Numbered from the whole stretch's first letter, positions 2,817 through 59,949 are shown. The stretch: DNA of 63,166 nucleotides, filler included, from Phoronis australis (GCA_002633005.1; 8 parts of 8 records of this genome joined end to end with filler, not necessarily neighbours in it), one strand, 5' to 3'. The notes: generated by a model not told the origin, from the sequence alone. A program made the numbers and translations.

Positions 2817-2967
2817 CAGTGGTCGTATTTGTCTATGGCACGGTACAATAAAGCCAGGTGTTTAAAAATTTTGAGTTGGACAAATAAATCTTGAAATTGG
2901 AAAATTTCAGTTGAATCCAAACAGTAACTACAAAATGTAGACTTGAGTATGCTTATCTGTGGTTAAA

Positions 2968-5195
2968 CAGGGCTCGACGCTATTAAAATCGCCAGGTCGC
3001 ATTTTGCGACCAAGCCAGAATCCCAGGTCGCATTTCCAAAATCCAGCTCGCATTCATAAATGCCAAGTCGCAAAATTTTCCCGCCATTTTTACGCGCCAA
3101 AATTGATTTTAGATCATCGAGAAAATGTTTAGATTATGCTCTTTCCTGCCGCGTTAAATACTCACAAATTTCAGATCCCAAAATTGACTTCGTTCATTCA
3201 GGTACGGCGTTACTGTTCTTCATGACCGCCATTGAAAGTCTCTAGAGCGCAAGTCAAGTTCCCGACGTGAAAGTTGAATTAGTGCTCTCTAACTGACACG
3301 TGCATTCGAGTAGCTAAGTTTGCGATTTGAAAAGGGAGAAAATGCCCGTTGAAAAAGTATACGGGATTTTGCTAGGTCTGACCTGCTACTGGCTGTCATC
3401 AAAGTCGTTAAAGATTCAAACTAACTGCGAGGGCAAATTCCCTCCGCTTTTTGTTTGCAACCCAAATTTTGCAACTTAACTCATGTTCGAAAAACGTCTG
3501 TCGAAAAAAAATCCGTGAAACGATGCTTTAACAGAATAAACAATTCAGTGCAAATGTCACAACAAAAATGTGGTACTTATGCTATTTACGTACTCAACAA
3601 TTAGTTTTTTCATGAAGTGAATTGCCTCCAAATAATTCCCGACTCCCTCTGTGCGAGTTTCCATCTTGTAATGGCAAGTTTGCTCAATACCTACCAGGTA
3701 CGGGAAAAATAGGTCTGTCACAAAACGACATGCATGTCACTAGTGTCAATTTTCTTTCGGAGGTATAAAACAAAGCCGGGATTTGGTTTTTACATATTGA
3801 GAAAAGACGTTTTTTGAAAACGGAATTTATTGTGTAAAATGAGAGTGGCACACCATATAGACTGCGAGTCAATTTTAAACCACGCGCGGTCGTTTGTAGT
3901 GCGATATGATGGGCGCTAGCCTAAACCGTGGGTGCTTAATTGGAAATTCACAAAAGTTGAGGGGGAACGCTTAGATCAGTGAGCACTTATTGTGAAACAC
4001 TTCTTCAAAGGTAGGGAGTAGGCTTGTGCGTTAGCATAGTCGTTTACCTGAGTGTTTGCGGTAATAAGATATTAAACGACTACAATGGTAAGAAACGTTA
4101 TAATACGATTTTGCGAGGCAAACTCCATCTAGTAGGGGTGACTTTCTGCATATCGTTACCACCTACACTGTACCCTTTTTAGCCACCCGGAATAATATAG
4201 TTCTTAATTGCGTGCTCCAGCTGGAACATGACTGTTTCTANAAGTAGTAATTCGCGGTAGTATGATGCATATTTATAATATTCTTACCAGTCACTAACAT
4301 TCTGTCGCAACTCCTGCGCACCTTCTGCCCGTTGATATTCACTGCACGAACCGGCTGGGGCTGGATCGTCGACAACCGGAGCAAGGGGATCGAGGGAAAA
4401 CGGTTCTACTAGAGAGAAGGTGTGAGCACAAATTGTTCCTATGGGGTCTGTCGCCTCCTCCTCCACATCCGAAACGTCAGAATCATCTGAAAACTCCACC
4501 TGACCCTCCCTGTATCTTTCAAAATATTCTTCATCTACGCTGCTGTACTCACTGGGATCCATATTGTTTTCTTTGTGTTCCCCAACACCACGTCACAGAT
4601 GTGTAATGAAGGAAAATGGCGCCGTTTCTATTTTCCGTTACAACAATGGCGTTACAACGCCACGGCAACAAATATGTAAATAACTTTTTATAGCGACGTA
4701 CAATTCAGTTAATGTTAAGAATATAGTAAGAATAATTATAAACACGAATTTAGAGCATATTGTTGTTCAGATTGGTTGAGACCTTGCAATTTACACTTTA
4801 AGAATTAATAGAAACACCGCTGTTATGTGGCCCGAAACTTTCTTCGGCAAATCCAGAAATTTGCAAAAGTGGCCAAAAATGTTAGCCAATGAAACGCGTC
4901 AAAGATCGATTCTGCACATCCCATGGTCACGCGACTTGCTTACAAGTCATCGGGAGGGCTGTTCTCAGTTAGTGGTATTTGAACTTGGATTTGGCAACAA
5001 CCAAGTAATGGTCGGATTAACAACAGTTGCTTTATATTTGCCAGGTATCTACCGAGAAGTGTAAAAACTCAGCTCGCATTCGTTGGAAATTCCAGGTCGC
5101 ATTTTGCGACTTGATACGAGCTGACAAAAATCCCAGCTCGCATTTCCAAATTTCAGGTCGCAAATGCGACCTGCAGCTCGTTATACCGAGCTCTG
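2968..5195. mobile_element. Non-autonomous TIR DNA transposon (CAGGGCTCG TIR, 5-bp TSD TTAAA; hAT5-like), copy 1
   Basis: cagggctcgac at 2968 and cgagctctg ending 5195, flanked by ttaaa on both sides; subterminal gcgacc/ggtcgc repeats; arms homologous (inverted) to 57343-59675 and 43069-43517. Confidence 0.8.
4288..4562 (-). pseudogene. Orphan first coding exon of a P2X7-intracellular-domain/Nanor-like protein (KolobokP accessory type) inside the TIR element
   Basis: Acidic N-terminus, EPFSLDP (PYxFEP-like) and RQNVSDW motif ending at a TG|gtaaga donor; no following CxCxxC exon found. Confidence 0.5.
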
Positions 5196-6897: not shown

Positions 6898-7971
6898 GTA
6901 CATAAATACAAAACATTTTTTTATATTCCCTGATATTTTTACTTTCAGATAATATATACTTTTACTAGTTGACAAAGCCTAGTTTTTTGATATATGAGTT
7001 AGAATGAAGGCCACTAAATAAGGTTTGAGATAACCGTAACAAGAAATGAAGGTAAAAGATTTGTAAATCCAATTGCAAAAACTAATATAAAAGTAAGGTC
7101 CAACACATCCTTAATCAACAAATAAACTTGCAACATTTTGCAATGCAGATGACAAAATGATAAGTCCAACATTTCAAATTTCTTACATCTGCTAAGTAAA
7201 CATCTAAAACGGGAATAGCCCTATCAAAGCACACTACTTTTTTCAAGACAAGCTTCACTACACGGCATAAAAAATGTTAAGGAATGATCAACTGGCTTTT
7301 TACATACTAGTAGACTATCTTGCACCATTATGACAGAGTGACCAACTTCAAACAGACAAGTATGTGGAAGTTTACATCATAAAACTATGTCTTAGTTTCA
7401 ACAGGATTAACAACAATCCATCATTTACTTACTGCCATGTTTTGACAATCTATTGGCAACTCTGTATGTTTGATAGTGTCAATACCCACACACGGCTGAT
7501 AGTAGTACTCATTCTGCTTGTCTGGGGATATCGCAGTGAGGTACCTAGATTTGGGGTGAAAACAAAGGATTTGTAATAACGAGATTTTAGCAAGCTCGTC
7601 TTGACTTCACAAATTACGATAATTGTCACCAGCTTGAGTTTATTCTTGACTGACCAGGTCAATGATCAACAATAGAACAAATTTAGGTAAGAAAACGAAT
7701 GCATAAGTTTTACAAAATTACTTAAAGGGAAGGCAATCATTTTTAATGTCATTACTGGTTTGATTACCATTTTCTGGTTATCTTAGTTAACTATTCAACT
7801 TAAATAAATTCCTTCGGATTCTAATCCATTAGTCACACACATTACACTGGAAGCAATGTTTACCACCTGAATCATTGTACAACAAATTTGTTTACATGTA
7901 CTTCTGTGTGTCATTGTGTATGTCAGCTTGTAAGAAAGGAGACCGTTATTTCCCTTTCTCTGAGTTTTATT

Positions 7972-9370
7972 TAGTATACCTGGAGGTTATTCAGTGTACC
8001 TGGAGGTTATTCAGTGTACCTGGAGGTTATTTGGTGTACCTGGAGGATCGGTGTACCTGGACGTTATTCAGTGCACCTGGAGGTTATTCAGGGTACCTGG
8101 AGGTTATTCAAGGTACCTGGAGGGTATTCAGTGTACCTGGCGNNNNNNNNNNNNNNNNNNNNNNNNNNNNNNNNNNNNNNNNNNNNNNNNNNNNNNNNNN
8201 NNNNNNNNNNNNNNNNNNNNNNNNNNNNNNNNNNNNNNNNNNNNNNNNNNNNNNNNNNNNNNNNNNNNNNNNNNNNNNNNNNNNNNNNNNNNNNNNNNNN
8301 NNNNNNNNNNNNNNNNNNNNNNNNNNNNNNNNNNNNNNNNNNNNNNNNNNNNNNNNNNNNNNNNNNNNNNNNNNNNNNNNNNNNNNNNNNNNNNNNNNNN
8401 NNNNNNNNNNNNNNNNNNNNNNNNNNNNNNNNNNNNNNNNNNNNNNNNNNNNNNNNNNNNNNNNNNNNNNNNNNNNNNNNNNNNNNNNNNNNNNNNNNNN
8501 NNNNNNNNNNNNNNNNNNNNNNNNNNNNNNNNNNNNNNNNNNNNNNNNNNNNNNNNNNNNNNNNNNNNNNNNNNNNNNNNNNNNNNNNNNNNNNNNNNNN
8601 NNNNNNNNNNNNNNNNNNNNNNNNNNNNNNNNNNNNNNNNNNNNNNNNNNNNNNNNNNNNNNNNNNNNNNNNNNNNNNNNNNNNNNNNNNNNNNNNNNNN
8701 NNNNNNNNNNNNNNNNNNNNNNNNNNNNNNNNNNNNNNNNNNNNNNNNNNNNNNNNNNNNNNNNNNNNNNNNNNNNNNNNNNNNNNNNNNNNNNNNNNNN
8801 NNNNNNNNNNNNNNNNNNNNNNNNNNNNNNNNNNNNNNNNNNNNNNNNNNNNNNNNNNNNNNNNNNNNNNNNNNNNNNNNNNNNNNNNNNNNNNNNNNNN
8901 NNNNNNNNNNNNNNNNNNNNNNNNNNNNNNNNNNNNNNNNNNNNNNNNNNNNNNNNNNNNNNNNNNNNNNNNGTTATTAGGTGTACCTGGAGGATCAGTG
9001 TACCTGGAGGTCATTCAGTGTACCTGGAGATTATTTGGTGTACCTGGAGGTTAATTAGTGTACCCGGAGGTTATTCAGTGTACCTGGGGGTTATTCAGGG
9101 TACCTGGAGCTTATTCAGTGCACCTGGAGGTTATTTGAAGTACATGGAGGCTATTTGGTGTACCTGGAGTATCAGTGTACCTGGAGGTTATTCAGTGTAC
9201 CAGGAGGTTATTTGGTGTACATGGAGGCTATTTGGTGTACCTGGAGGATCAGTGTACCTGGAGGTTATTCAGTGTACCTGGAGGTTATTCAGTATACCCA
9301 GAGTTTATTCATTATACCTGAAGGTTATTGAGTATACCTGGAGGTTACTGAGTATACCTGGAGGTTATTG
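7972..9370. repeat. 20-bp minisatellite (tacctggaggttattcagtg) spanning an N gap
   Basis: Same unit on both sides of the 8143-8972 gap. Confidence 0.95.
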
Positions 9371-12258: not shown

Positions 12259-12511
12259 GCCTATAGTTCAGTGGTTCGTGTGGTGGACCCGCAACTGAAA
12301 AGACATGGGTTCAATTCCTGACCGTGGAAATCAGGTAGTTATGCTTGAGCACGGCACATGACATTCATTGCTTCAGGCGACTCAGCCATACAAGAGTATC
12401 ATGGCCTATGGCGGACTAGTGTCCTATGCAGTTGGGTTGAAAGATGCTAATCCACTTATGCCACAAAACGTGAGTGAACAGCTGGACCAATGAAAGGTTT
12501 ACTTTACTTTA
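12259..12511 (+). mobile_element. tRNA-derived SINE with conserved central domain (Meta/CORE/V-like) and (TTTAC)n tail
   Basis: A box tagttcagtgg, B box ggttcaattcc, central gcttgagcacggcac motif, 3' tail tttactttacttt. Confidence 0.7.
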
Positions 12512-12985: not shown

Positions 12986-14037
12986 GCTTGCAATGTGGCA
13001 GATGTTCATAGCTTAGCAAACTTAAGTGTACTGCACGAGCTATGTTGTCACGCATGAACAGGATATGTTTACTTTGATCACTAATCAATAAGTAAATTAA
13101 TTTTGCGTGGTGATAGAATTCACAAAGGATAGTAAGCTTGACCCATATTTCTGGCAAGCAATCTTATTCAAACTTGGAGAAAAATTCCCAATAAGGTAAA
13201 TTCATACTCATACCATTAAACAGAAAGATGCCCAAATTATGAGCAAGACTCACCCTCCAAATTCCATGACAATGTGTTTATATAACTGTCCGTGGGTATA
13301 GTGCCAGTCTGATACCACTGGTAGTCCAGTTTCTGAAACAATGATTGAATAGAAGAGCAATATTATTTAACGGTGCATAACTATTACAACGAGCATGGTT
13401 TACACTTTCTGCAATGAATTTCGATTAAAACTCGCATTTTAAGGGTTGAAAGATCTCGGTAGGGTTTGCTATATAGTCAGTTGTTGCGTTATCAAGAACA
13501 TAGGGAGAAGTCAATTTCAAAGATCAAACCTCAAGAAAGTATACCAAAATTGAAGTCTATACCATAAGGTATAATGTACACCATTGAAGTAATATGACTA
13601 TCACCTTTGGACATTCTACTTCACACAATGGCTAGTAGCGAATATTTTGATTCAAGTTTGTAACGGTCACAAGTCATGGGTACTAAATTTATGTTAAATA
13701 AATCACTTCGTTATATCATATTTTGAAGCTGGAATTTTTGACCCGCCAAAGCAGTGCTCAATATTACAACAAATACATCGCCTTTGTGATAAACACACAT
13801 TACAGCTTTGCAGATTTATAACCAAACACCGGCACCAACCAAGTGCAAAACCATTGACACAAATGACCCCTGGTGGATGAATGAGACTTACATGAGGGCT
13901 GTCGTGGTACAGGAGTGGGGCAGGCTCAAATATGAAAACCTGGCGGTCATAGGCAGCAGCAATCTGCAACAAGTAACACAATCAGTCACGACTTATCAAC
14001 GTCTTTCTAAAAGTGTTTTGAGGGGGTGATGTGATAC

Positions 14038-14352
14038 CATCATTTCTAAAACTTATTTTTCTAATTACACCAACCTATTCAGAATGGTACTGTGTTTCGG
14101 TTGGTAATTTCTCTGGCCATCTTCAGGTGTTCCTGCATTCTTAGAAGAGCGACCACGAGTATATGGTACACTCATGGTAGTCAATGATGAGCAAACTGCG
14201 ACTGAACTAAGGACCTTTAGATTGTCAGTCCAGAACTCTTAACCACTACACCACCGATGGCCAGAGAAATGACCAACCGAAACGTCATGCCAATGGCAAT
14301 GTAAATTGGCTACAGGTTGGTGTAAACAGACCAACAGATTTTAGAAATGTTA
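14038..14352 (-). mobile_element. Non-autonomous tRNA-head/hammerhead element with inverted terminal duplication (Penelope pLTR-derived)
   Basis: Minus strand: tRNA-like head (14255-14195), body, CTGAAGA...GAAAC hammerhead core (14133-14086), tail; 14256-14350 is an inverted partial copy of hammerhead plus tail; homologous to 53390-53625. Confidence 0.65.
14086..14133 (-). ncRNA. Degenerate minimal hammerhead ribozyme
   Basis: CTGAAGA-T-GGCCAG...CCAACC-GAAAC; the cleavage triplet is mutated here but intact (GAAACGTC) in the inverted copy at 14279-14286. Confidence 0.5.
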
Positions 14353-14677
14353 TGCCTTATCAAGACATGTAATTAAAGTGAAATTGTAAATAAAACAGGC
14401 CAGGTCAATTAAAAAAGTCAACACAACCCACTTGAACTTACAAATACAATTGAATACTATTTCTATGGTGATAAGTTTGTTTCCAGGGAACAATGTGCAG
14501 AACCCGAGTTTGAGCTGCACAAGCACCTAAGTCCAGATGTAGCTACATGCCACAAATTCTTGATAAAAATTATCGTGNNNNNNNNNNNNNNNNNNNNNNN
14601 NNNNNNNNNNNNNNNNNNNNNTTAATTAATTAANNNNNNNNNNNNNNNNNNNNNNNNNNNNNNNNNNNNNNNNNNNN

Positions 14678-25827: not shown

Positions 25828-28800
25828 CAAACTGTATTGGAATGACCAACAGACCCAAAAGTTAGAGACTTCGCACTTGGATGGTTCTCAGAGGCAAACT
25901 TTGCTGGATGAAGGTCTAAAATGGCCCAACCAGATGGCGTTTGACTATTCATTGAGGTACGTACCTGGATAAAAAATGAGTAATAAATTTGTTTCAGGTA
26001 CATTGTTCGTAAAGTTTCCATCCAAAACTAATAAAATGTGTTTTGAAAAGGAAAAGTTGCAATTGTCATTAGGCTGTCCAATACCATCTGAAGTTACAGC
26101 ATGAGCAAACACTAGGTCATAAATACCGGTATGGGTACTAGAACACCTGACATAAATACAGCTCGGGTCTAGGTACCATAACATCTGACATAAATACAGC
26201 TTGTGTAGGTACCAGAACACCTGACATAAATACAGCTGGTCTAGGTATCAGAACACCTGACGTAAATACATCTGGTATAGGTACTAGAACATCTGACATA
26301 AATACAGCTGGTATAGGTACCAGAACACCTGACATAAATCGACAGCTTGTATAGGTACCAGAACACCTGACATAAATCGACAGCTTTTATAGGTACCAGA
26401 ACACCTGACATAAATACAGCTGGTATACGGGTACAAGAATACCTGACATAAATATAGCTGGTACATGTACCAGAACACCTGACATAAATACAGCTGGTAT
26501 AAGTACCAGAATACCAGAACACCTGACATAAATACAGCTGGTATAGGTATCAGAACACCTGACATAAATACATCTGGTATAGGTACTAGAACATCTGACA
26601 TAAATACAGCTGGTATAGGTACCAGAACACCTGACATAAATCGACAGCTTGTATAGGTACCAGAACACCTGACATAAATCGACAGCTTTTATAGGTACCA
26701 GAACACCTGACATAAATACAGCTGGTATACGGGTACAAGAATACCTGACATAAATATAGCTGGTACATGTACCAGAACACCTGACATAAATACAGCTGGT
26801 ATAAGTACCAGAATACCAGAACACCTGACATAAATACAGCTGGTATAGGTATCAGAACACCTGACATAAATACATCTGGTATAGGTACTAGAACATCTGA
26901 CATAAATACAGCTGGTATAGGTACCAGAACACCTGACATAAATCGACAGCTTGTATAGGTACCAGAACACCTGACATAAATCGACAGCTTGTATAGGTAC
27001 CAGAACACCTGACATAAATACAGCTGGTATACGGGTACAAGAATACCTGATATAAATATAGCTGGTATACGTACCAGAACACCTGACATAAGTACAGCTG
27101 GTATAGGTACCAGAACACCTGACATAAATACAGCTGGTCTAGGTACCAGAACACCTGACATAAATACAGCTGGTATAGGCACCAGAATACCAGAACACCT
27201 GACATAAATACAGCCGATATAGGTACCAGAATACCAGAACACTTGACATAAATGCAGCTGGTATAGGTACCAGAACACCTGACATAAATCGCCAGCTTGT
27301 ATAGGTACCAGAACACCTGACATAAATCGACAGCTTGTATAGGTACCAGAACACCTGACATAAATACAACTGGTATAGGTACCAGAACACCTGACACAAA
27401 TACAGCTGGTATAGGTACCAGAACACCTGACATAAATACATCTGGTATAGGTACTAGAACATCTGACATAAATACAGCTGGTATAGGTACCAGAACATCT
27501 GACATAAATCAACAGCTTGTATAGGTAACAGAACACCTGACAAAAATTGACAGCTTGTATAGGTACTAGAACACCTGACATAAATACAGCTGGTATAGGT
27601 ACCAGAACACCTGACATAAATACAGCTGGTCTACTAAAGTAGGTACCAGAACACCTGACATAAATACAGCTGGTATAGGTGCCAGAACACCTGACATAAA
27701 TACAGCTGGTATAGGTACCAGAACACCTGACATAAATACAGCTGGTATAGGTACCAGAATACCAGAACACCTGACCTAAACACAGTCGGTGTAGGTACCA
27801 GAACACCTGACAAAAATACCGGCAGTATAGGTACCAGAGCACCTGACAATTCAGTGTGGAGTAATGGTACTAGGCTTTTGCAGTCGAATAGAAAAACTTA
27901 AATTGAACGATTTACCTCTGCTTGACCCAGTTTAAAATTCAGGTCAGGACAGATTGAGGTAACAAAGACGAAACACAATGTGTCTCTCTTTTCATCGTTC
28001 AATAATTATGATTTGATGGCATGGTATTGGCAAAGAATTAAGAAAATGCTATGAGTGAAAAAATATTTGTCTAAGTTACATGTAAACTTAGTGTTTCCAC
28101 ACAAAATACTCTATTGCCATTCATAGACACAGCCAAATCAAATCTTTTGCTATGGATATTTTCAAGTTCATGAGATCCCATCCTAATTATGCAGCCACAT
28201 ATTTATATGTAGGCAGATCATGTTATTATAACTGTCAGGCGTTTTTAACAAAATGAGATTTTGACAATTAAATGCTTTTTAATTTCATAGTGCTTATTAA
28301 TTATAGATACCAAGCCAGAGTTTCAAACTGTCTGTTGTGTAGAAACTTTTGTTTTCCTTTACTCATATATCTGTCTTGGCTCAGTTAAGATATTCTACCT
28401 TTTCTTAGGAAATTGAGACGGGTAGATTTGCTGGGAATCGGGTTGATAAATGCTTGTGTCAAGTTTGTAATATGAGTTTTCACTTTCCTTTTGTTTATTG
28501 TAAGTAAATATGAACATTTAAAAAGAAAATTCCCTAGCAAAGCTACCTTGCGAATATGTTTAATTGTCATTTAAAAGTATTAAAAAATTGTCAGAGAAAA
28601 ACTCACTGTAGAAATAAATAAATAATTGATACTTATAAGTAAAATTATATTGGCTACCTTACTGAAAAGGTGACATATTAGCTTGTCTTGTAGTTTTTAT
28701 TTAGTTTCATACCACGTATGTCTTGAAATGCCCGTTCAATAACAATGTCATGTGTCCGTGGAATAATCTAGAAGCTTATTGTACAGTAACGTGACACAGT

Positions 28801-31800
28801 TACTGCACGGAGTTGGCGAAAGATGTGGATTGGAACATTAACATGTGATATGAATAATGTTAAACTACACACATTTTGTGAAGGCCTCGTGAAAATATTT
28901 ACTTGGTACAGCAACCTCGCGCAGTGCACTAATAGTTATAAACATTATATATCTATGCTTACTCTTAAATTCATATCACTAATGAACAAACAGATAAATA
29001 TTCCATTGTGTTGTGCATTGCAGCCGTCTATACTTTGTTGACGGATGGAATAAGACTATCAACTCGATAGCATCAGATGGTTCAGACCCACGTACTGATC
29101 TTCAGATGACCGAGTTGTCCGCGAACCCACTGTTTGGACTAGCAGTAACTAGAGACCGATACTTTGTCAGTATCTGGCACAAAGGTGTATCTGCTGTCAA
29201 TCGAACAGCCAGCTCCGCCCCTTTTACTGTTGCCATTGGAGGTGATACAGTGTTTGGTCTGGCTACAGATAATGTCCGTGCACAACCATCAGGTAAGCAA
29301 ATTAGATAAAGTTTGAATAAAACACTCCTTTTGAAAATTCAGTGATTGTTGAACTCCTACCCAGTCCTCCTCTTGTCATGTTTTGGAGTTTGGAAACAGT
29401 TGTCAGACTTTGGAGTGTGAAAACGGTTATCATGGTTCATACTTTCTAGAGACTTTCTCCATCTTGATTGTGAGTCCATTCTATATTCTACTGTGACATC
29501 ATTCTCACTAATTATAGTGAAAAGGGAATGCTATCATTTATTTGTATAACCATTTGCATGTCCAACAACAGAGACATTTCATTAATAACAGTTAAATTGA
29601 TCTTTTGAATGTCATCACTTTACTACAGATCATCATTGCCCGTTTATTTTGTAGGCACCTCTGTATGTACTGCAAACCCATGCTCCCATCTGTGCTTGCC
29701 AGCCTCTGGTTCGTCGTATGTGTGTAAATGCCCCAGCTATTCTGGACTGGCTCTGTCATCAGACAGCCGCACTTGTAAAGGTAAAAGGACTGGTAGTTTA
29801 TGGGAAATGGGCGACGCGTGAAGTTATGCAGTTATTTTATAGGTTAGCCTCAGTTGCGTGGTACAATCTAAAAGTATGCGGAAAAAATGACCCGGAATTT
29901 CCCGTCATAACGACTGAGCGGAAGCTGAATTCATCATCAGAGTAGTCTTCCTTCATGAACGAGAATGAAAAAGAATTAGCTGAATAGTTAGTAAAGGTGG
30001 CCAAGCCATTTTGTAATTAGAGTTTTGCCGTCCCTGTAATTATTAGCAGTCATTTTTTTATGCGCCCACATATTTATATGTGGACACATTATGCCGTCAT
30101 CTCCGTCCGTCCGTCCGGGCGGCATCCGTCCGGCATCCGGCGTCCGCTGCTCTAACTCCAAAACCGTTTGACGTATGTTCATGAAATTTTGCACGTGTTC
30201 CTTTCATGGATGGGACGGCATGAGCGAACTTTCGGACGGATTCAACTACTGGTCTACTCCCTAGTGGCAATTTTAGTTTTTTACGCTTACCTCTATATCT
30301 TCAAAGGTCTTGTGCGTATCTACATAAAATTTGGCATGTAGGCATCTATTAGTGGGATGACGCTATGCACCCGTTTTCGGATAGATTCAACGTAATTTGC
30401 GCCACCTAGTGGCCATTTTTATTGTTTTCGAGTATGTTTTTAGACGTCCACCCCTCTATCAACCAAACCGCTCTAAGGATGATTGTGGAAATTGGCATGT
30501 ATGTTCTTACTATGAAGAGGATGGCTGATGATGATTTTCTGACGATTTCGAGGAAGGTGGCGCCTCCTAGTGGCAGTTTTGTTTTTTTGTGCCTATGGCC
30601 GCTGTATCTCCTTAACCGTCTTTAGGATCTTTACTAATTTTAGTAAGTGCATTTATATGATGTTGACAAAGGACGACAACGACTTTCGGATGGATTTGAT
30701 TACTGGTCTGCCCCCCTGGTGGCAATTTTATTTTTTATGTTAACCTCTGTATCTTCAAAGGTCCTTAACGTATTTTCAAAAAACGTGGTGTACAGGCTTC
30801 TGTTAGTGTGGTGACACTTTCAGATGGATTCGACTTATTTGGCATGTATGTTTTTACTATGAAGTGGACAGCTGATGATGATTTTCCGATGGCTTCAGCT
30901 ACTGTGGCGCCTCCTAGTGGCAGTTTTGTTTTTTTGAGCCCATGGCTGTATCTCTTAAACCGTTTGCAGGATCTTTACTAAATTTAACAAGTGTATTTAT
31001 ATGATGTTGACAAAGAATAACGACGAGTTTTGGATGGATCTAACTACTGGTGTGCCCCCTTGTGGCAATTTTAGATTATACGTTTACCTCTGTATCTTCA
31101 AGGGTCCTTAACGGATTTTCATAAAATTTTGAATACAGGCATCTGTTGGTGAGATGACGCTATCATCCTGTTTTTGGATGGAATCGAGGTATTTTGCTTC
31201 ACCTAGTGGCCATTTTTGTTGTTTTCTAGTCTGTTTTTTTGGCGTCTACCCCTCTATCAACCAAATAATTTTAAGGATGTTCTTGAAAATTGGCATTTAT
31301 GTTCTCTGTGTGAAGAGGATGGTTGACGATGATGACTTTGACTATTGTGGCACCTCCAATGGTAGTTTTGTTGTTTTGCACCCATTGCTGTATCTCCTAA
31401 ACCCACTGCTGGGTCTTTATTAAATTTAGTATTTATATGAAGCTAGCAACAGACAATGAGGACTTTCAGGTGGATGCAATGAACACTTTGCCCCCTAGTA
31501 GCAGTTTTCATTTTATTCTGTTTTCCTTTGTTTTCTGAAGTTCCGTGACAGATTTCTATGAAATTTGGTGAATAGCTTTCTATTAAAGAAGCTATGACAT
31601 TTTCCCATTTTCGGATGGATTGTACGTTTTTATGCCATCTAGTGGCCATTTTTATGACCAATAAACAACCCTAAAAGCACACCGTTTGCGATGCATTCGT
31701 GGGCGCATTTCAACGCTCCGCGTTGCTCTTGTTTGCAGTTTACAGAATTAGTCATCAGGACGAGAAAATAGTATTTTGTCTGATTACTTTCGTCTTGTAC

Positions 31801-43067: not shown

Positions 43068-43068
43068 A

Positions 43069-43517
43069 ATGACTTTGATGACAACCAGTAGCAGGTCAGA
43101 CCTAGCAAAATCCCAGATACTTTTTCAACGGACATTTTCTCCCTTTTCACATCGCAAACTTAGCAACTCGAATGCATGTGTCAGTTAGAGAGCACTGATT
43201 CAACTTTCACGTCGACAAGTTGCCTTGCGCTCTAAAGCCTTTCAATGGCGGTCGTGAAGAACAGTAACGCCGTACCTGCATGAACGAAGTAAATTTTGCG
43301 ACCTAAAATTTGTGATTATTTAAGGCTGCAGGTAAGAGCATAATTTAAACATATTCTCGATGATCTAAAAAATCAATTTTGGCGCGTAAAAATGTCGGGA
43401 AAATTTATGAATGCGAGCTGGATTTTCAAAAAGCGACATGGGATTTTGACTAGGTTGCAAAATGTGACCGCTAGGTCGCACAATGCGACCTGGCGATTTT
43501 AATAGCGTCGAGCCCTG
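43069..43517. mobile_element. Partial third copy (one arm) of the CAGGGCTCG TIR element
   Basis: Reverse complement of 2968-3410; ends gcgtcgagccctg. Confidence 0.88.
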
Positions 43518-44364
43518 TGATCCAAACCATTTTTGCACCTAGCTGCTTTCAGATATCCAGTGAGTTTTGAGTGAGTAAAAAATCTAGCGGCAATAATGCT
43601 AAGTCAAAGGAACTTAACGCCCCATACAGCGCCACCTATGTTTTGGGTTGGAGCCCTTTGTTATGGTTCTGCGGAAGGTAGCTCCAAAGTTTGGCAGAGT
43701 TCTGCCCACATCTGACCAGAGATGCAGTTCACATGGTTCTTGTAAGAACAGCGTCAACATCCAAGCACATGCAAAATCACAAGAGCGAAAGACGAGTCTT
43801 TCGTAAACTAGCAAAATGGCTACCACTGAATGGATCCGGCAGCAATAAAAATCTTTGATCCATATGCACTCTGAAGACTGCAGCACAAGTTACTGTGAAA
43901 CCCCCTTTGTATGCGATACAGCACTGTTGAAAGCCACACAGAAGGGTAACGACGCTTACCTCGGCTCAAAGAATTCGAACGGTTCAGACTGGTACTCCTA
44001 GCAGATGGTTGCAATTTCAGTTTGGAAACAGGAAGAAAAGACTGAATTATAGCAGTAACCACAGCAATAATACCACTATCTCAATTTGGAGTGATGTAAC
44101 CCTGCTACATAAATTTTCATCAAATTTCATGAACTTAAGATTTTGTTTAACACAAGAGGATGCTAAAATCTTCAGAAACCAGCACACTCTTCGATGTCAT
44201 TTGTTAAAAAAGTGCCGCTTCACACAAAAACATTGATCACCAGAGAAAATAAATTTGCAGTTAATAATAAAAAAGAAAAAAATTGAAGGCAGACTTGCAC
44301 ATGATCTATCTTGCCCATTGCACTAATCACCTGAACCTATTTTTATGCATTAATGATATATAGA

Positions 44365-44540
44365 CAAAACCTGAGCTGAAGAACTAGATACTTGACCCTA
44401 CGGTCTAGCAGTGTGCCCCAGTGGGACTCAAACCCACGATCTTGACCCTAGGGTCTAGCAGTGTGCCCCAGTGGGACTCAAACCCACGATCTTTAGTAAA
44501 GGAAGTGGAAACCTGTCCCACTGAGTCACACTGACTCCTC
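44365..44540 (-). mobile_element. tRNA-derived SINE fragment with an internal ~52-bp duplication
   Basis: cttgacccta...gggactcaaacccacgatc occurs twice; B-box-like gggtttgagtcc on the minus strand. Confidence 0.55.
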
Positions 44541-52440: not shown

Positions 52441-53481
52441 TTTTTTCGTGTATTAACACATGATGGTGACTGAACTGCGCCGACAGACAAATCGATCAGT
52501 GCCGACTCTGCCGGCGGGCTGGTGGACGGTGAACTATTCAGAGGGAGGAGTAAAACTTTTAAAAAATTTTACACGATTTTTGTATCACAGACTCCAAATT
52601 AACCGCGTGATCATATTTTACTAAATTTCTCACTGGAGTTTAATAAAACGACAACAAACGTGTGATGATACACGTAAAGTCGATCAGCATGAACTTTGCC
52701 GGTTCATATCGTTCATTTACTTCTTACTTTCAGCTCACCTGTCCCATTTTACATTCATTATTTTCAGTTCATGCTCCTTAAAATAATGTATCAGGGTGTC
52801 TTGTGCGAGTTGCAGACACATGTATTCATTGACACTGACCCATGAAGTTTGGTTTGTTATTTTTGAGCGTATTATTCTAATTGTGATTAAATAATGCTGG
52901 TGATGAGACGGAGTCCTTGTAGTTAGCGTTCCATTCAGCAGTACAACGGCGCAAATACGAGTACCACCTCCGTGCCTAGTACATTTAAGTGATAGATTGA
53001 ATACCCTAATGTAAATAGTCTCCTTCAGGCCTCTTTCAGACCAGTTTTTTGCTACTCTAAATTTCAACATTGCGGTGACCGTCGGCATGTAAGTGCACTG
53101 TGTGTAAACCGCCTTTCCCGCCAGTCTATTCAAGGGCGCGGGACGCTCTCGAGAGCTTAAGCATAAACATCCAGATGATCAGGTTTCTTTTCGTCATGAC
53201 TTATAAACTTTCTTGGGTGGATTATTACTTACATTTCATCAAATTATATATTTTCTTTTTTCTGCAAGAACGCTTTGTGTACTATGATACCACTACTAAG
53301 GAAAAAATCCATGTTCACGTAGGTCAGATATCCTTTGTAAAGTATTCTATAAAAACGATGGAGAGAAAGTATCAATCAGCGCAACTATTGACTTTCTAAA
53401 ACCGCTCTGAGGTGGTGGCGTGTTACAACTATTATTAATATAGTTGTAGGTCTATTTACACCGACCTCTTGTCTATTTACA

Positions 53482-53531
53482 CTGTCACGACGTTTCTGTC
53501 GGTCTACTCTCCGGCCATCGTCAGGTGTCAG
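53482..53531 (-). ncRNA. Minimal type I hammerhead ribozyme in the Penelope pLTR
   Basis: CTGACAC-CTGACGA-T-GGCCGG(loop)CCGACA-GAAAC-GTC-GTGACAG: both core boxes, GUC cleavage triplet, stem I with one mismatch, palindromic ACGT stem III. Confidence 0.75.
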
Positions 53532-53574
53532 AAGAACGAGCACGGATATGTGGTACCATCATGGTGGTATTTTT

Positions 53575-53626
53575 TGACCGGGACAAGATTTAAACCTACG
53601 ACCAGCACCTTATCCACTACATCACG
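53575..53626 (-). promoter_or_regulatory. tRNA-derived Pol III promoter (A/B boxes) between the Penelope ORF stop and the hammerhead
   Basis: Reverse complement gtgatgtagtggataagg...ggtttaaatc; homologous to the more complete tRNA-like head at 14195-14255. Confidence 0.55.
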
Positions 53627-54782
53627 AAATCATCCATATACTTAGAGGGAATTTTATTGTACTTAAACCTTCCTAAGTAGACTGAGCCAGGTGTCACTTG
53701 GTGTTTGCTTGGTGACGTTGCCTTGTACATTCATATACATGCTTCCTTGATATTTCTCTTGGTCCAACCTGTTTCGCTGTCAAGTATTCGGGTGTTATTC
53801 CACTAGATATTGTGTTGTGTCGACCACATGTGTTCTGCTACTCCTGATGAGGTATTACCCTCTCTACAACAGCTCTCATGTTCAGCAATTCTCGTCTTCA
53901 GTCGTCTTAATGTTTCACCGATATATGATTCACCGCATTCATACGAGATTTCATAGATGACATTTTTCTTTTACCCCATGTCAGTTGTTGGTTTGACTTT
54001 TGTCAGTCGCCTACCCAGTGTGTCTGAGCTGCGGTATACTGTAAGTTCTTATTTTAAATCCTTTACATTTGCGTCCTAGCTTCTCGGTTATTCCGGGTAT
54101 ATATGGTAAGCACATAATCTGCAGTGGGCGTTCTTCTGCCACTTTCTCTTTTCTCTACGATGTCAAAGCCGACTTGATGAAATCCCTTGGGTAGCCCTTT
54201 CTTTCGAATGTCTCCGTCAGGTTGGTCATTTCTGCTTGGAGTGCTGTATAACTGTAGATTTCTTTTCGAGGTATCATCCTTCAACACGAGTCACTAGTAC
54301 GTCTAGGTTTGGGAGACTGTTATTTGTCTCTTCTTCCATTAGGAATCTAATTGTAAGCGCAGTGCTGTTCAGATGGTGAAAGAACTATGATGGATTTTCG
54401 GATTTTTTTTTTTTGAAATTGTTTTGTACTGGGGATTTAGTTTCTATCTGTTCTCCCACGAGGAAATTTTTTTCAATAAAATGCATTACATAGAAAATCA
54501 GCAACAATGTACAATATATTTCATTGAAAACACGACTTTGATCTATTTTTACTAGTTTGATGTCGGTTCTTTTCATTTCTGTAAATAGAGATCTTGTCCT
54601 TACGTCACAACAGTGCAACAAAAATCCAAACGACATCTGTAGGTAACATATTTTAAAAAGCGATATTTCGAGACACACATAGTAATCTTCAGGCTACAAT
54701 CTACAACTAGTTCACAGTGAAACGCACATCAGAAATGACAAATGCAATAAAACACATGAAGTTGGCATGCGCAACTATGAAG

Positions 54783-57342: not shown

Positions 57343-59675
57343 CAGGGCTCGACATAACGAGCTGCAGGTCGCATTTGCGACCTGAAATTTGGAAATGCGA
57401 GCTGAGATTTTTGTCAGCTCGTATCAAGTCGCAAAATGCGACCTGGAATTTCCAACGAATGCGAGCTGAGTTTTTACATTTCTCAACAGATACCTGGCAA
57501 ATACAAAGCACCTCTTGTTAATCCGACCGTTATTTGGTCGCTGCCAAATCCAAGTTCAAAACAACACTAACGGGGACAGCCCTCCCGATGACTTGTAAGC
57601 AAGTCGCGTGAACATGGGATATGCAGTATCGATCTTCGACGCGTATCATTGGCTAACTCTTTCGGCCACTTTTGTAAATTCCCGGATTCGCCGAAGAAAG
57701 TTTCGGGCCACTGCTTAACACGTGATAAAACTTCACAAAACAACGGTGTTTCTACTAATTCTTAAGCGATTAACTTACCAAACTTTGTGGTGGACAAAAA
57801 TGTTTATGTTTCACATAAGATATCCTTATTACATGTACCAAATATCCACGACAATATCCCTGATACCGCACTGCGGCACCGTTAGCGCGCAAGCGGCCCC
57901 GGCACACAATCGTGACTTAGACTGAGATGTGCTTCTGCTTTTTATCGTATTAGACAGCCAAAGTGAAAATGACAACCTTATTAATCGCCAAACGACGGTC
58001 ACGTCTTTACTTCCACTGGCCAAGAAATTGTCTAACCCCTTACTTGTTTCTGGGGCTACCTGCGCGAAATATGATTTGTCTTTCACCCGTTCGTTGCCAA
58101 CGTAAAGTGTAGGCATACTCCAGCGATTCAAGTGCGTGAACTCACGCGCGCGCACCACTTCAAAGAACAGCGACTGCCCTAAATGAAGAGTATACCGGCT
58201 TGGCTCTGGTTTATTTGAAAATAAACTCAGATTCCCAGCGGTTATAAAAGACCCGATGTACCGGGACCGATATAACCCCNNNNNNNNNNNNNNNNNNNNN
58301 NNNNNNNNNNNNNNNNNNNNNNNNNNNNNNNNNNNNNNNNNNNNNNNNNNNNNNNNNNNNNNNNNNNNNNNNNNNNNNNNNNNNNNNNNNNNNNNNNNNN
58401 NNNNNNNNNNNNNNNNNNNNNNNNNNNNNNNNNNNNNNNNNNNNNNNNNNNNNNNNNNNNNNNNNNNNNNNNNNNNNNNNNNNNNNNNNNNNNNNNNNNN
58501 NNNNNNNNNNNNNNNNNNNNNNNNNNNNNNNNNNNNNTATGCCCGTAGCCAGTTATTGCAACTAAACTGGCACTAGATGCGAAATTGTGGTTCAAGTTAG
58601 CGAACTTTTCATTCTCTTTATACACCCCCCCCCCGGGCAACTTTTCGCTCCCCGTACCACCGTCGCCGTAAAATGTTCAGACTCCTACAGAAACAACCTT
58701 GTTCCGGCTGAAGCGGGCAGTTAACGATATCCAGAAAGTTACCCCTACGAGATGGAATTTGCTTCGCAAAATCGTATTATTATAACGTTTCTTACCATTG
58801 CAGCGTTTTAATATCTTATTACAGCAAACACTGAGGTGAACGACTATGCTCACGCACAAGCTTACTCCCTACCTTTAAAGAGTTTCATAATAAGCGCTCA
58901 CTGATCTATTAAAAGTCCCCCCCTTAAATTTTGAGAATTTCCATTGAAGCGCCCACAGTTCAAGCTAGCGCCCATCATAGCGCACTACAAACGACCGCGT
59001 GTGATTTAAAATTGTCACGCAGCTTATATGGTGTGTCACTTTCATTTTAGACAACTTCAGTTTTCAATAACGTCTTTTCACAATATGTAAAAACCAAATC
59101 CCGGCTTTGTTTTATATCTGGGAAAGAAAGTTAACACTAGTGACATGCGTGTCGTTTTGTGACTGACCTATTTTTCCTGTACTTGGAAGGTATTGCGGAG
59201 CAAACTCGCCATTACCCGAATTGGTTTGAATCGTTAACGACTTTGATGACAGCCAGTAGCAGGCCAGATCTAAAAAAATCCCGGATACTTTTTCAAGGGG
59301 CATTTTCTCCCTTTTCACATCGCAAATTTAGCTACTCGAATGCACACAAGTCAGTTAGAGAGCACTGATTCAACTTTCACGTCGGCAACTTGCCTTGCGC
59401 TCTAGAGTCTTTCAATGGCGGTCGTGAAGAACAGTAAGGCCGTACCTGCATGAATGAAGTCAATTTTGAGATCCGAAATTTGTGAGTATTAAACGCTGCA
59501 GGTAAGAGCATAATCTAAACATGGTGATCTAAAAAACCTATTTTGGCGCGTAAAAATGGCGGGAAATTTTTGCGACCTGGCATTTACGAATGCGAGCTGG
59601 ATTTTGAAAATGCGGCCTGAGATTTTGGCTAGGTCGCAAAATGCGACCTGGCGATTTTAATAGCGTCGAGCCCTG
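57343..59675. mobile_element. CAGGGCTCGAC-TIR element, copy 2 (inverted relative to copy 1, different central region, internal gap)
   Basis: Perfect TIR cagggctcgac/gtcgagccctg; 57343-57770 matches 5195-4795 and 58690-59675 matches 4240-2968. Confidence 0.85.
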
Positions 59676-59949
59676 TAAGGTAACGATTTATAACACAAAA
59701 TTGTCTTTGAAATCTGAAATCGGGTAATTTACCGAAATGGGTTTTAAACGGAGGCAAATATGGAGCACCGTGTCCTACTTTTTGATTGTCCTCCCTAATT
59801 AAATTTTAGGTTCTCCGAAGGTTTGCTAGTTGTGTTCTGATAAGGATCAGTCAGAACATAAATGTGGCTTTCGGTGACAAGATATAGTTGTTGTAGATGT
59901 GCTTCCGGTGAATTATATGAGCCTCTGTTAGCTACTCGCTCATGGGCAA

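Follow-up and report, generated by a model that had tools for sequence, protein, structure and literature searches.

A tRNA-like head placed within the pLTR is a real, branch-wide variant among Penelope-like elements (PLEs). We found it in a decayed element on the minus strand of a 63,166-nt stretch of Phoronis australis DNA, hereafter the window, in other copies from reads labelled as the same species, and at three related loci. The layout runs from the stop codon through the head and a short A-rich leader to an ATG, with a hairpin and a minimal hammerhead ribozyme within the first 30 codons, and the element ends ~170 nt into the reading frame. The head is very probably a selected part of the pLTR, and we assign a probability of roughly 0.5 to the reading that it acts as a Pol III promoter for the element's own RNA. 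To our knowledge, Pol III has been thought to serve short non-coding mobile elements only. No description of a tRNA head in a Penelope pLTR, or of an autonomous element made by Pol III, was found in the openly searchable literature; the supplementary consensus files of PMC8557442 and PMC4209133, and Repbase/Dfam, may already include members of the branch.

The first-pass annotation of the window had proposed a minus-strand PLE with an RT tail, a GIY-YIG domain and a stop, followed by a tRNA-like head with A and B boxes and by a minimal hammerhead, and all of these parts were found. The features of the main copy are as follows.

53389..54382, minus strand: Penelope-like element, 5'-truncated and decayed, with the RT end, GIY-YIG and one pLTR (tblastn against P0001 and P0002)
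About 53663..54384, minus strand: RT thumb/linker and GIY-YIG endonuclease with stops and frameshifts, in four frameshifted pieces
53665-53663, minus strand: stop TAA
53575..53631, minus strand: tRNA-like head, anticodon arm deleted in the main copy; predicted Pol III type-2 promoter
53614..53624, minus strand: A box, one mismatch in the main copy, consensus base in other copies
53586..53596, minus strand: B box, one core mismatch in the main copy, consensus base in other copies
53560..53562, minus strand: ATG opening the reading frame of the next unit, ~13 nt past the head
53529..53538, minus strand: left half of a conserved 6-bp hairpin preceding the hammerhead; right half gone (11-nt deletion)
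53486..53527, minus strand: minimal type I hammerhead, predicted cut after 53489
53524-53518 and 53496-53489, minus strand: hammerhead cores CTGACGA and GAAAC-GTC
53389..53488, minus strand: remaining pLTR and tail, which are the 5' coding region of the ORF (match to P0002 residues 11-51)
53383..53388, repeated at 54383-54388: candidate target-site duplication of 6 nt (shared 6-mer in random flanks: 3%)

The four frameshifted pieces were 49–70% identical to intact P0002 and 54–85% identical to P0001, and over the endonuclease these were the closest intact relatives (P0001, 84%; P0002, 826 aa, 78%). Judged by its sequence, the window element is an EN+ PLE, with a single ORF for RT plus GIY-YIG at the C-terminus and with a CCHH endonuclease. 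P0002 contained an RVT_1 domain (E 4e-12) along with weak matches to TERT and group II RT. The GIY-YIG domain was weak by Pfam (4 of 21 aligned relatives), and Pfam gave no match on the broken frames of the window; a model of the relative P0125 matched the GIY-YIG catalytic domain of I-TevI (probability 1.0, TM 0.78 by target, E 0.04). The CxC and two His of the CCHH motif were invariant in alignment A2, and Tyr replaces the first Cys in the decayed copy of the window. Further EN+ traits were a pLTR that takes in the opening codons together with a minimal type I hammerhead and, in a second copy near 14 kb, an inverted pLTR with a ~34-nt difference and an 8-nt duplication. On placement in the Penelope/Poseidon clade, for which a linker free of zinc fingers is expected, the RT-EN linker had no Cys cluster, identity to an 836-aa anole protein that may or may not be PAc was 36%, and the tree was built without named Repbase references. 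Locus searches with close relatives gave no match in viral or metagenome contigs, and the hairpin-hammerhead pattern gave none in viral contigs; a loose hammerhead pattern gave 13 viral matches, which scored 14–25 bits on the covariance model versus 58–97 for the training sequences.

The 3' end of the element is the point where the flanks of other copies turn heterogeneous (agreement 0.40–0.49 in reads). Its hammerhead has a 3-bp stem I, an extra U after A9, a 6-bp stem II and a palindromic ACGT replacing stem III, and it agrees in this with Penelope hammerheads, which are reported to have an additional base behind A9, a long stem II, a short stem I and a palindrome at the centre (PMC4209133). 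The main copy is damaged. Its boxes lie 28 nt apart versus 45 in the 14-kb copy, 11 nt are missing at 53528-53529 relative to other copies, and C11.1 of stem II is changed. The ATG of the main copy is out of frame because of the 11 nt lost; in the 14-kb copy and in L016–L018, the same ATG opens a frame that continues through the hammerhead. The window has a single A/B pair at most 120 nt upstream of a hammerhead core, and none of 60 dinucleotide shuffles produced one; for the pair in the main-copy spacer, at 53624-53614 and 53596-53586 with two mismatches, none of 150 shuffles did as well. The Rfam hammerhead models suggested in the first-pass annotation and a tRNA gene search recovered neither motif: ARAGORN and Rfam called no tRNA and no hammerhead in the window or in L016–L018. 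Relaxed ARAGORN yielded only scattered noise, and the main copy folded no better than shuffles. Given these negative results, the main-copy motifs rest on the comparison of copies.

Two parts of the element had been read as those of a SINE-like unit, and both proved to be coding. The ~45-nt stretch behind the head, previously called a body, is the start of a reading frame (ATG 53562-53560), and the supposed tail matches the N-terminus of P0002 in the same residues listed above. This last part, 53389..53488, contains a single TTTT at 53401-53398 in the main copy and is the family's deepest part in reads; we infer that reverse transcription starts in the region at its end. Elsewhere in the window, a second decayed hammerhead-like motif with another palindromic centre (54692-54662, minus strand) lies 280 nt upstream of the element and is probably an end fragment of another Penelope family, and the stretch 54512-54600 was high-copy in the read runs. 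Another loose hammerhead-core match at 43871-43901 (plus strand) did not match the covariance model.

Other copies of the element carry the head in the same place. We sampled them in public reads with the same species label, the best DNA run of which is possibly the source of the window. In run X4, six of eight contig pieces among the matches listed (8 of 237) crossed uninterrupted from the GIY-YIG end to the A-box half of the head; because these pieces had 10–16 differences in 88–101 nt, they represent other loci. At least two X4 contigs among the same listed matches rejoined at the ORF start (53556). Position 53622 in the A box had the consensus base in 11 X4 contigs and 16/16 RNA reads, and position 53592 in the B box had it in one contig and in 27/29 RNA reads, 11 of which continue into unrelated DNA and so are not tied to a coding copy. 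The consensus base at hammerhead C11.1 (53497) was seen in 83 contigs and 232/294 reads, and reads from other copies also contained the 11-nt gap and loose ends at the hairpin. One X1 contig and two X6 RNA reads joined 53630 to 53433, representing a copy without head, ORF start and hammerhead. With the head present in X4 contigs, in the 14-kb copy and in L016–L018, a chance SINE insertion at the main locus, the refuting outcome named in the first-pass annotation, is ruled out.

Read depth gave no sign of a separately amplified SINE, as the head and ORF start were no deeper than the GIY-YIG end. In X4 the summed contig depth, which is no copy number, was ~30000 at the hammerhead, ~4400 at the ORF start and ~5300 at the GIY-YIG end, and in X1 and X2 the hammerhead and tail were ~10x deeper than the ORF. 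An excess at the hammerhead and tail is expected from truncation, since this is the 3'-most fragment. The earlier proposal of a SINE-like Pol III unit in the pLTR is retained for the tRNA-like head, which other copies and L016–L018 carry as a built-in part, and is not supported for a SINE-like unit with its own body. The direct link it drew to amplified self-cleaving tRNA-SINEs finds no support either: the body is the ORF start, the head has no extra depth, and the 14-kb copy has the pattern of a truncated insertion.

This second copy lacks the ORF and has a head of full length, laid out as follows.

14000..14254, minus strand: second, ORF-less copy with full-length head, ATG 14175, hairpin, hammerhead and tail (~65% identity to the main copy)
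14253-14243 and 14208-14198, minus strand: A box and decayed B box of the 14-kb copy
14255..14355, plus strand: inverted partial pLTR abutting the 5' end of the 14-kb copy; stops ~34 nt before the direct copy's end
13992-13999 and 14356-14363: 8-nt duplication around the 14-kb copy (shared 8-mer in random flanks: 0.4%)

In its sequence, the 14-kb copy fits the pattern of a truncated Penelope insertion, for which an inverted pLTR, a one-sided tail of 30–40 nt and a short target duplication have been described (PMC3846280, PMC8557442). The hammerhead core of the direct copy is broken, and its A and B boxes, with three mismatches, were reached by 9 of 150 shuffles. Its 5' end lies within ~7 nt of the predicted Pol III start. 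We found no tandem array at the main copy or the 14-kb copy, and an array of the retrozyme or SM-alpha kind was excluded on this ground and on the position of the minimal hammerhead in a reading frame. Tandem arrays of 36-, 20- and 62-nt units do occur in the window (26118-27874, 7967-9369 and 1-390, respectively), as do two dispersed repeat families (2967-3424, 43068-43518 and 59221-59676; 1365-2664 and 30054-31732), all unrelated to the element.

The head is found across related loci in a pattern that follows the protein tree. A metagenome scan contributed 23 loci and a genome scan two; the DNA past the ORF was read for 17 of these 25 (the eight omitted were near-duplicates or lacked the C-terminus), and 14 were scored after L028, L029 and L031 were omitted as decayed near-copies of L025/L030. 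The three loci closest to P0002 were L016, L017 and L018 (52–53% identity over the C-terminus), and all three had the stop, A box, B box, A-rich tract, ATG with homologous N-terminus, hairpin and hammerhead. Their A and B pairs had 0–1 mismatches, each reached by 0 of 150 shuffles, versus 4–5 mismatches, reached by 44–149 of 150 shuffles, at all 11 loci outside the branch, of which L015 and L024 are weak negatives without a visible hammerhead. In a quick tree built from 56 hand-chosen rows, comprising 12 loci and 44 of ~125 proteins, the four head-bearing rows grouped in one 15-row clade (SH-aLRT 98), which consists of two subclades and P0012 and in which 11 rows are without DNA. The head-bearing loci are all at most 1.2 kb, with ~1 kb seen per element, and the mutual relatedness of L016–L018 makes two head-bearing lineages in all.

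The heads of these two lineages were no more alike than unrelated SINE heads (scores 25–37 versus 22–56), and we dropped a provable common origin, since the likeness does not exceed that of four unrelated heads in the window. Judged from head likeness, one very old capture and two captures would fit equally. The four control heads, at 12264 (plus strand), 59958 (plus), 44528 (minus) and 32067 (minus), have tRNA-like A and B boxes without a hammerhead and are probably SINEs; in that at 44528, the B-box half carries a tandem duplication of 50 nt. Between head and ATG, L016–L018 have an AAT/AAAT microsatellite (L016:806-850, L017:772-808, L018:735-766) that resembles a retrocopy tail and could possibly form an unstructured leader, and the window family has just a short A run. 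The heads of L016–L018 contain ~17 extra nt in the anticodon region, an insert that we take to resemble a tRNA intron. Spacers of head-bearing elements were 139–255 nt without a T run, and those of L019–L021 were 462–477 nt and T-rich. In these head-less sisters the spacers resemble introns, with repeated TTTTAG motifs before the hammerhead (L019:1622-2164, L020:2150-2700, L021:1124-1700), and an ATG stands directly after the ribozyme; in L019, the end of one ORF is succeeded by the start of the next. Head-bearing and head-less groups could not be told apart by a splice-acceptor pattern. Penelope-like sequence was also present in records labelled as bacterial genome bins (L014:28-760, with a hammerhead, and L015:3001-3171), probably as animal DNA.

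Comparison of L016–L018 suggests that selection maintains the promoter boxes and not the shape of a tRNA. Identity was 92–96% in the A-box block and 81–91% in the B-box block, compared with 62% in the stretch between, 74–79% in coding DNA and 48–64% at fourfold sites (21–25 sites per pair). No cloverleaf was found in the heads by ARAGORN, Rfam or folding, and a functional tRNA was excluded for this reason. The boxes are kept while silent sites have diverged and no cloverleaf remains, so it is the boxes that are conserved; boxes likewise conserved without a tRNA fold have been described in Helenus (PMC10886601). The ribozyme region also shows compensatory change, the absence of which the first-pass annotation had named as a refuting outcome: 9 of 15 pairs in the hairpin, stem I and stem II changed on both sides among five sequences, and neither any of 500 shuffles nor a slid control attained this value, although the structure was drawn from the same five sequences, which favours this outcome. 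Three of the six hairpin pairs changed on both sides. The hammerhead is predicted to cleave itself.

We favour the reading given above, in which the head serves as the Pol III promoter from which the element's own RNA is made. Where two units stand head to tail, Pol III would begin at the head, pass through a frame poor in T runs and enter the next repeat, and the resulting more-than-unit RNA would be the one required by the element's enzyme. The 5' region of the ORF would contain the start of reverse transcription, as for an anole element whose ORF starts at the hammerhead and whose reverse transcription starts 111–118 nt into the ORF in vitro (PMC11167929). Such a start would lead to many hammerhead-and-tail fragments and to the inverted 14-kb copy. 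Because of weak TTTT signals close to the ORF start, most transcripts would terminate early, so that short ribozyme RNAs would prevail and full-length ones would be few. Lacking a cap, the RNA would have to be translated in a cap-independent way, for which the A-rich leader or ribozyme cleavage are speculative candidates; in viral RNAs, translation without a cap can be initiated by self-cleavage (PMC13725137), and an uncapped messenger is conceivable for this element. The head likely goes back to the capture of a tRNA retrocopy or SINE, which took the place of the usual Pol II promoter region.

The coding units of head-bearing elements are poor in T runs, and low T content explains much of this scarcity. 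Sense-strand runs of four or more T numbered 1 in 3993 nt across four head-bearing units versus 124 in 13791 nt across eight head-less ones, and 14 of 482 one-kb tiles of the window had at most one such run. Codon ratios in head-bearing versus head-less units were 2:13 versus 110:62 for Phe TTT:TTC and 12:56 versus 145:172 for Leu TTR:CTN, and Phe made up 2.6% of branch proteins versus 3.2% (P 0.005, overstated by the relatedness of the sequences). T content of head-bearing units was 17–22%, with higher GC3 in L016–L018. Relative to base composition alone, the T-run deficit did not reach significance (1 run, with 4.3 expected; P 0.07); P fell to 0.002 only when the excess found in head-less elements was taken into account, and was 0.02 for two lineages. 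C runs were equally scarce in head-bearing units (1 versus 7.4 expected), and the Phe codon bias gave P 0.09 relative to other NNT/NNC codons. Synonymous codon shuffling is no test of T-run avoidance here, because codon use itself has shifted. The window family has the TTTT at 53401 and a second TTTT upstream (14-kb copy, loose read ends). A TTTT stopped 65% of the transcripts of a SINE in human cells (PMC8466645), and in the pLTR such runs would reduce read-through and not abolish it.

RNA reads gave no evidence either way on Pol III. They covered all parts of the element on both strands, for the most part as pieces of other transcripts, with 78–90% continuing into unlike sequence, and ordinary RNA-seq contained no visible Pol III transcript and no pile-up of starts or ends. 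Counting against the favoured reading, the predicted ribozyme cleavage would remove the start codon, and Kojima argued that autonomous partners must use Pol II, Pol III being poorly processive (PMC10886601). Small-RNA-gene promoters in terminal repeats do have precedent (PMC10886601). In its fullest form, which we advance only tentatively, the proposal is that in a widespread branch of autonomous PLEs, Pol III would make the full 2.7–3 kb template and messenger from a captured tRNA promoter, with T runs purged and uncapped translation by way of the A-rich leader or hammerhead cleavage, and that this branch would be a source of SM-alpha-like SINEs.

A somewhat unlikely alternative is that Pol III makes a short RNA only, of head, hammerhead and tail (~190–230 nt to the TTTT runs). 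This RNA would act as a dimer partner for the minimal hammerhead of the long RNA or as a template for short copies, and the coding RNA would arise from Pol II read-through. The pair of TTTT runs that the window's family has in its pLTR is consistent with it, as are the palindromic minimal stem III, a motif for which a need for dimers has been reported (PMC4209133), the trans cleavage reported for a schistosome element (PMC6765202), and the start of the 14-kb copy ~7 nt from the predicted Pol III start. However, L016–L018 have no run of four T from the head to the element end and so define no short RNA, the head and ORF start were not deeper than the GIY-YIG end in X4 DNA (~4400 versus ~5300), and the ORF itself is poor in T runs.

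TFIIIC-bound boxes can act as chromatin boundaries or as helpers of Pol II promoters. It is distinctly unlikely, in our view, that the head works in this manner, binding TFIIIC to keep the repeat open without a useful Pol III RNA. Such a role would agree with selection on boxes and not on the fold, with RNA reads in which no discrete ends were seen, and with a T-run scarcity that comes largely from low T content, but the head occupies the very position from which a transcript has to begin if it is to contain the ATG and hammerhead, and the low T content and TTC bias track the head in the tree.

That the head is a functionless passenger, a tRNA retrocopy or SINE that landed once or twice in an ancestor's 3' UTR, is very unlikely. 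The A-rich tract after the head is like that of a retrocopy, no homology is detectable between the two lineages' heads, and one head-less joined copy exists; against this stand box blocks at 81–96% identity versus 48–64% at silent sites, the same slot in two lineages ~50% apart in protein, and the presence of the head in 0 of 11 outside loci.

A tRNA mimic can be cut by RNase P or Z to form the 3' end of a messenger, and a head directly after the stop, with a T arm that can pair in other copies of the window's family, might do so 32 nt past the stop, but this is hardly credible for a head with no cloverleaf by ARAGORN, Rfam or folding, unpaired D and acceptor stems and, in L016–L018, a shortened T stem beside an intact B box.

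Returning to Pol III as the maker of the element's RNA, its significance lies in the coding capacity of the element. Selected A and B boxes directly before the ATG of a coding element challenge the rule that autonomous partners use Pol II only (PMC10886601), and the tentative full proposal, if true, would describe a natural, Pol III-made, protein-coding mobile element. The layout bears on two questions about Penelope elements, the source of the more-than-unit RNA and the role of a weak hammerhead. The promoter-ribozyme-ORF unit is compact (<300 nt) and fits one reporter. It would also offer a simple route from a Penelope repeat to repeats that combine Pol III transcription with a hammerhead, such as SM-alpha.

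Among known systems, the Penelope/Poseidon PLEs are closest in frame. Anole PAc (PMC11167929) and Adineta Pen2a (PMC3846280) share the RT with C-terminal GIY-YIG, a pLTR with the first codons, a hammerhead over the ORF start, an element end inside the ORF, and an inverted pLTR with a 30–40 nt tail and a short duplication. Unlike them, the element here has tRNA-type A and B boxes in the slot before the ATG; in D. virilis, Penelope has an intron and an internal promoter that is LINE-like and lacks a TATA box (PMC2377424, PMC8557442), and Pen2a has a TATA/Inr promoter (PMC3846280). The available portions of the cited papers describe no tRNA head for PAc, Pen2a or D. virilis Penelope. Animal non-LTR retrozymes share a type I hammerhead and are reported to be derived from, or moved by, PLE pLTRs (PMC7229834, PMC7761336, bioRxiv 10.64898/2026.07.22.740005), whereas they are short, tandem, non-coding repeats, reportedly promoterless, and no tandem array occurs here; the accessible text of the bioRxiv paper contains neither "promoter" nor "Pol III". 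R2 resembles the element here as a coding retroelement that carries a self-cleaving ribozyme close to its start (PMC6765202), and both would do without a cap. It differs in its RT class, HDV ribozyme, rDNA target and lack of a promoter of its own. R2 is co-transcribed by Pol I and translated independently of a cap. Compared with tRNA-derived SINEs, the A and B boxes at tRNA spacing are present and a non-coding body is absent, with an ATG and open frame in five copies or loci.

The TRIMp3 elements, namely Helenus, with a tRNA in the LTR, and Cassandra and Ajax, with 5S in the LTR, share a small-RNA-gene promoter in the terminal repeat, box conservation without the fold and a proposed origin by SINE capture (PMC10886601). 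They differ as short non-coding LTR elements with PBS and PPT (PMC10886601); the element here has tRNA-derived boxes in its terminal repeat, lacks the non-coding LTR, PBS and PPT traits, and is a coding PLE. Schistosome SM-alpha and Sj-alpha share a Pol III promoter followed by a hammerhead, with tandem copies needed (PMC6765202), but are non-coding with canonical hammerheads, in contrast to a minimal Penelope-type ribozyme inside the ORF of a coding element. Pol III promoters in mobile elements are otherwise described for non-coding passengers (SINEs, TRIMp3), and the closest known systems, TRIMp3 and SM-alpha, are both non-coding.
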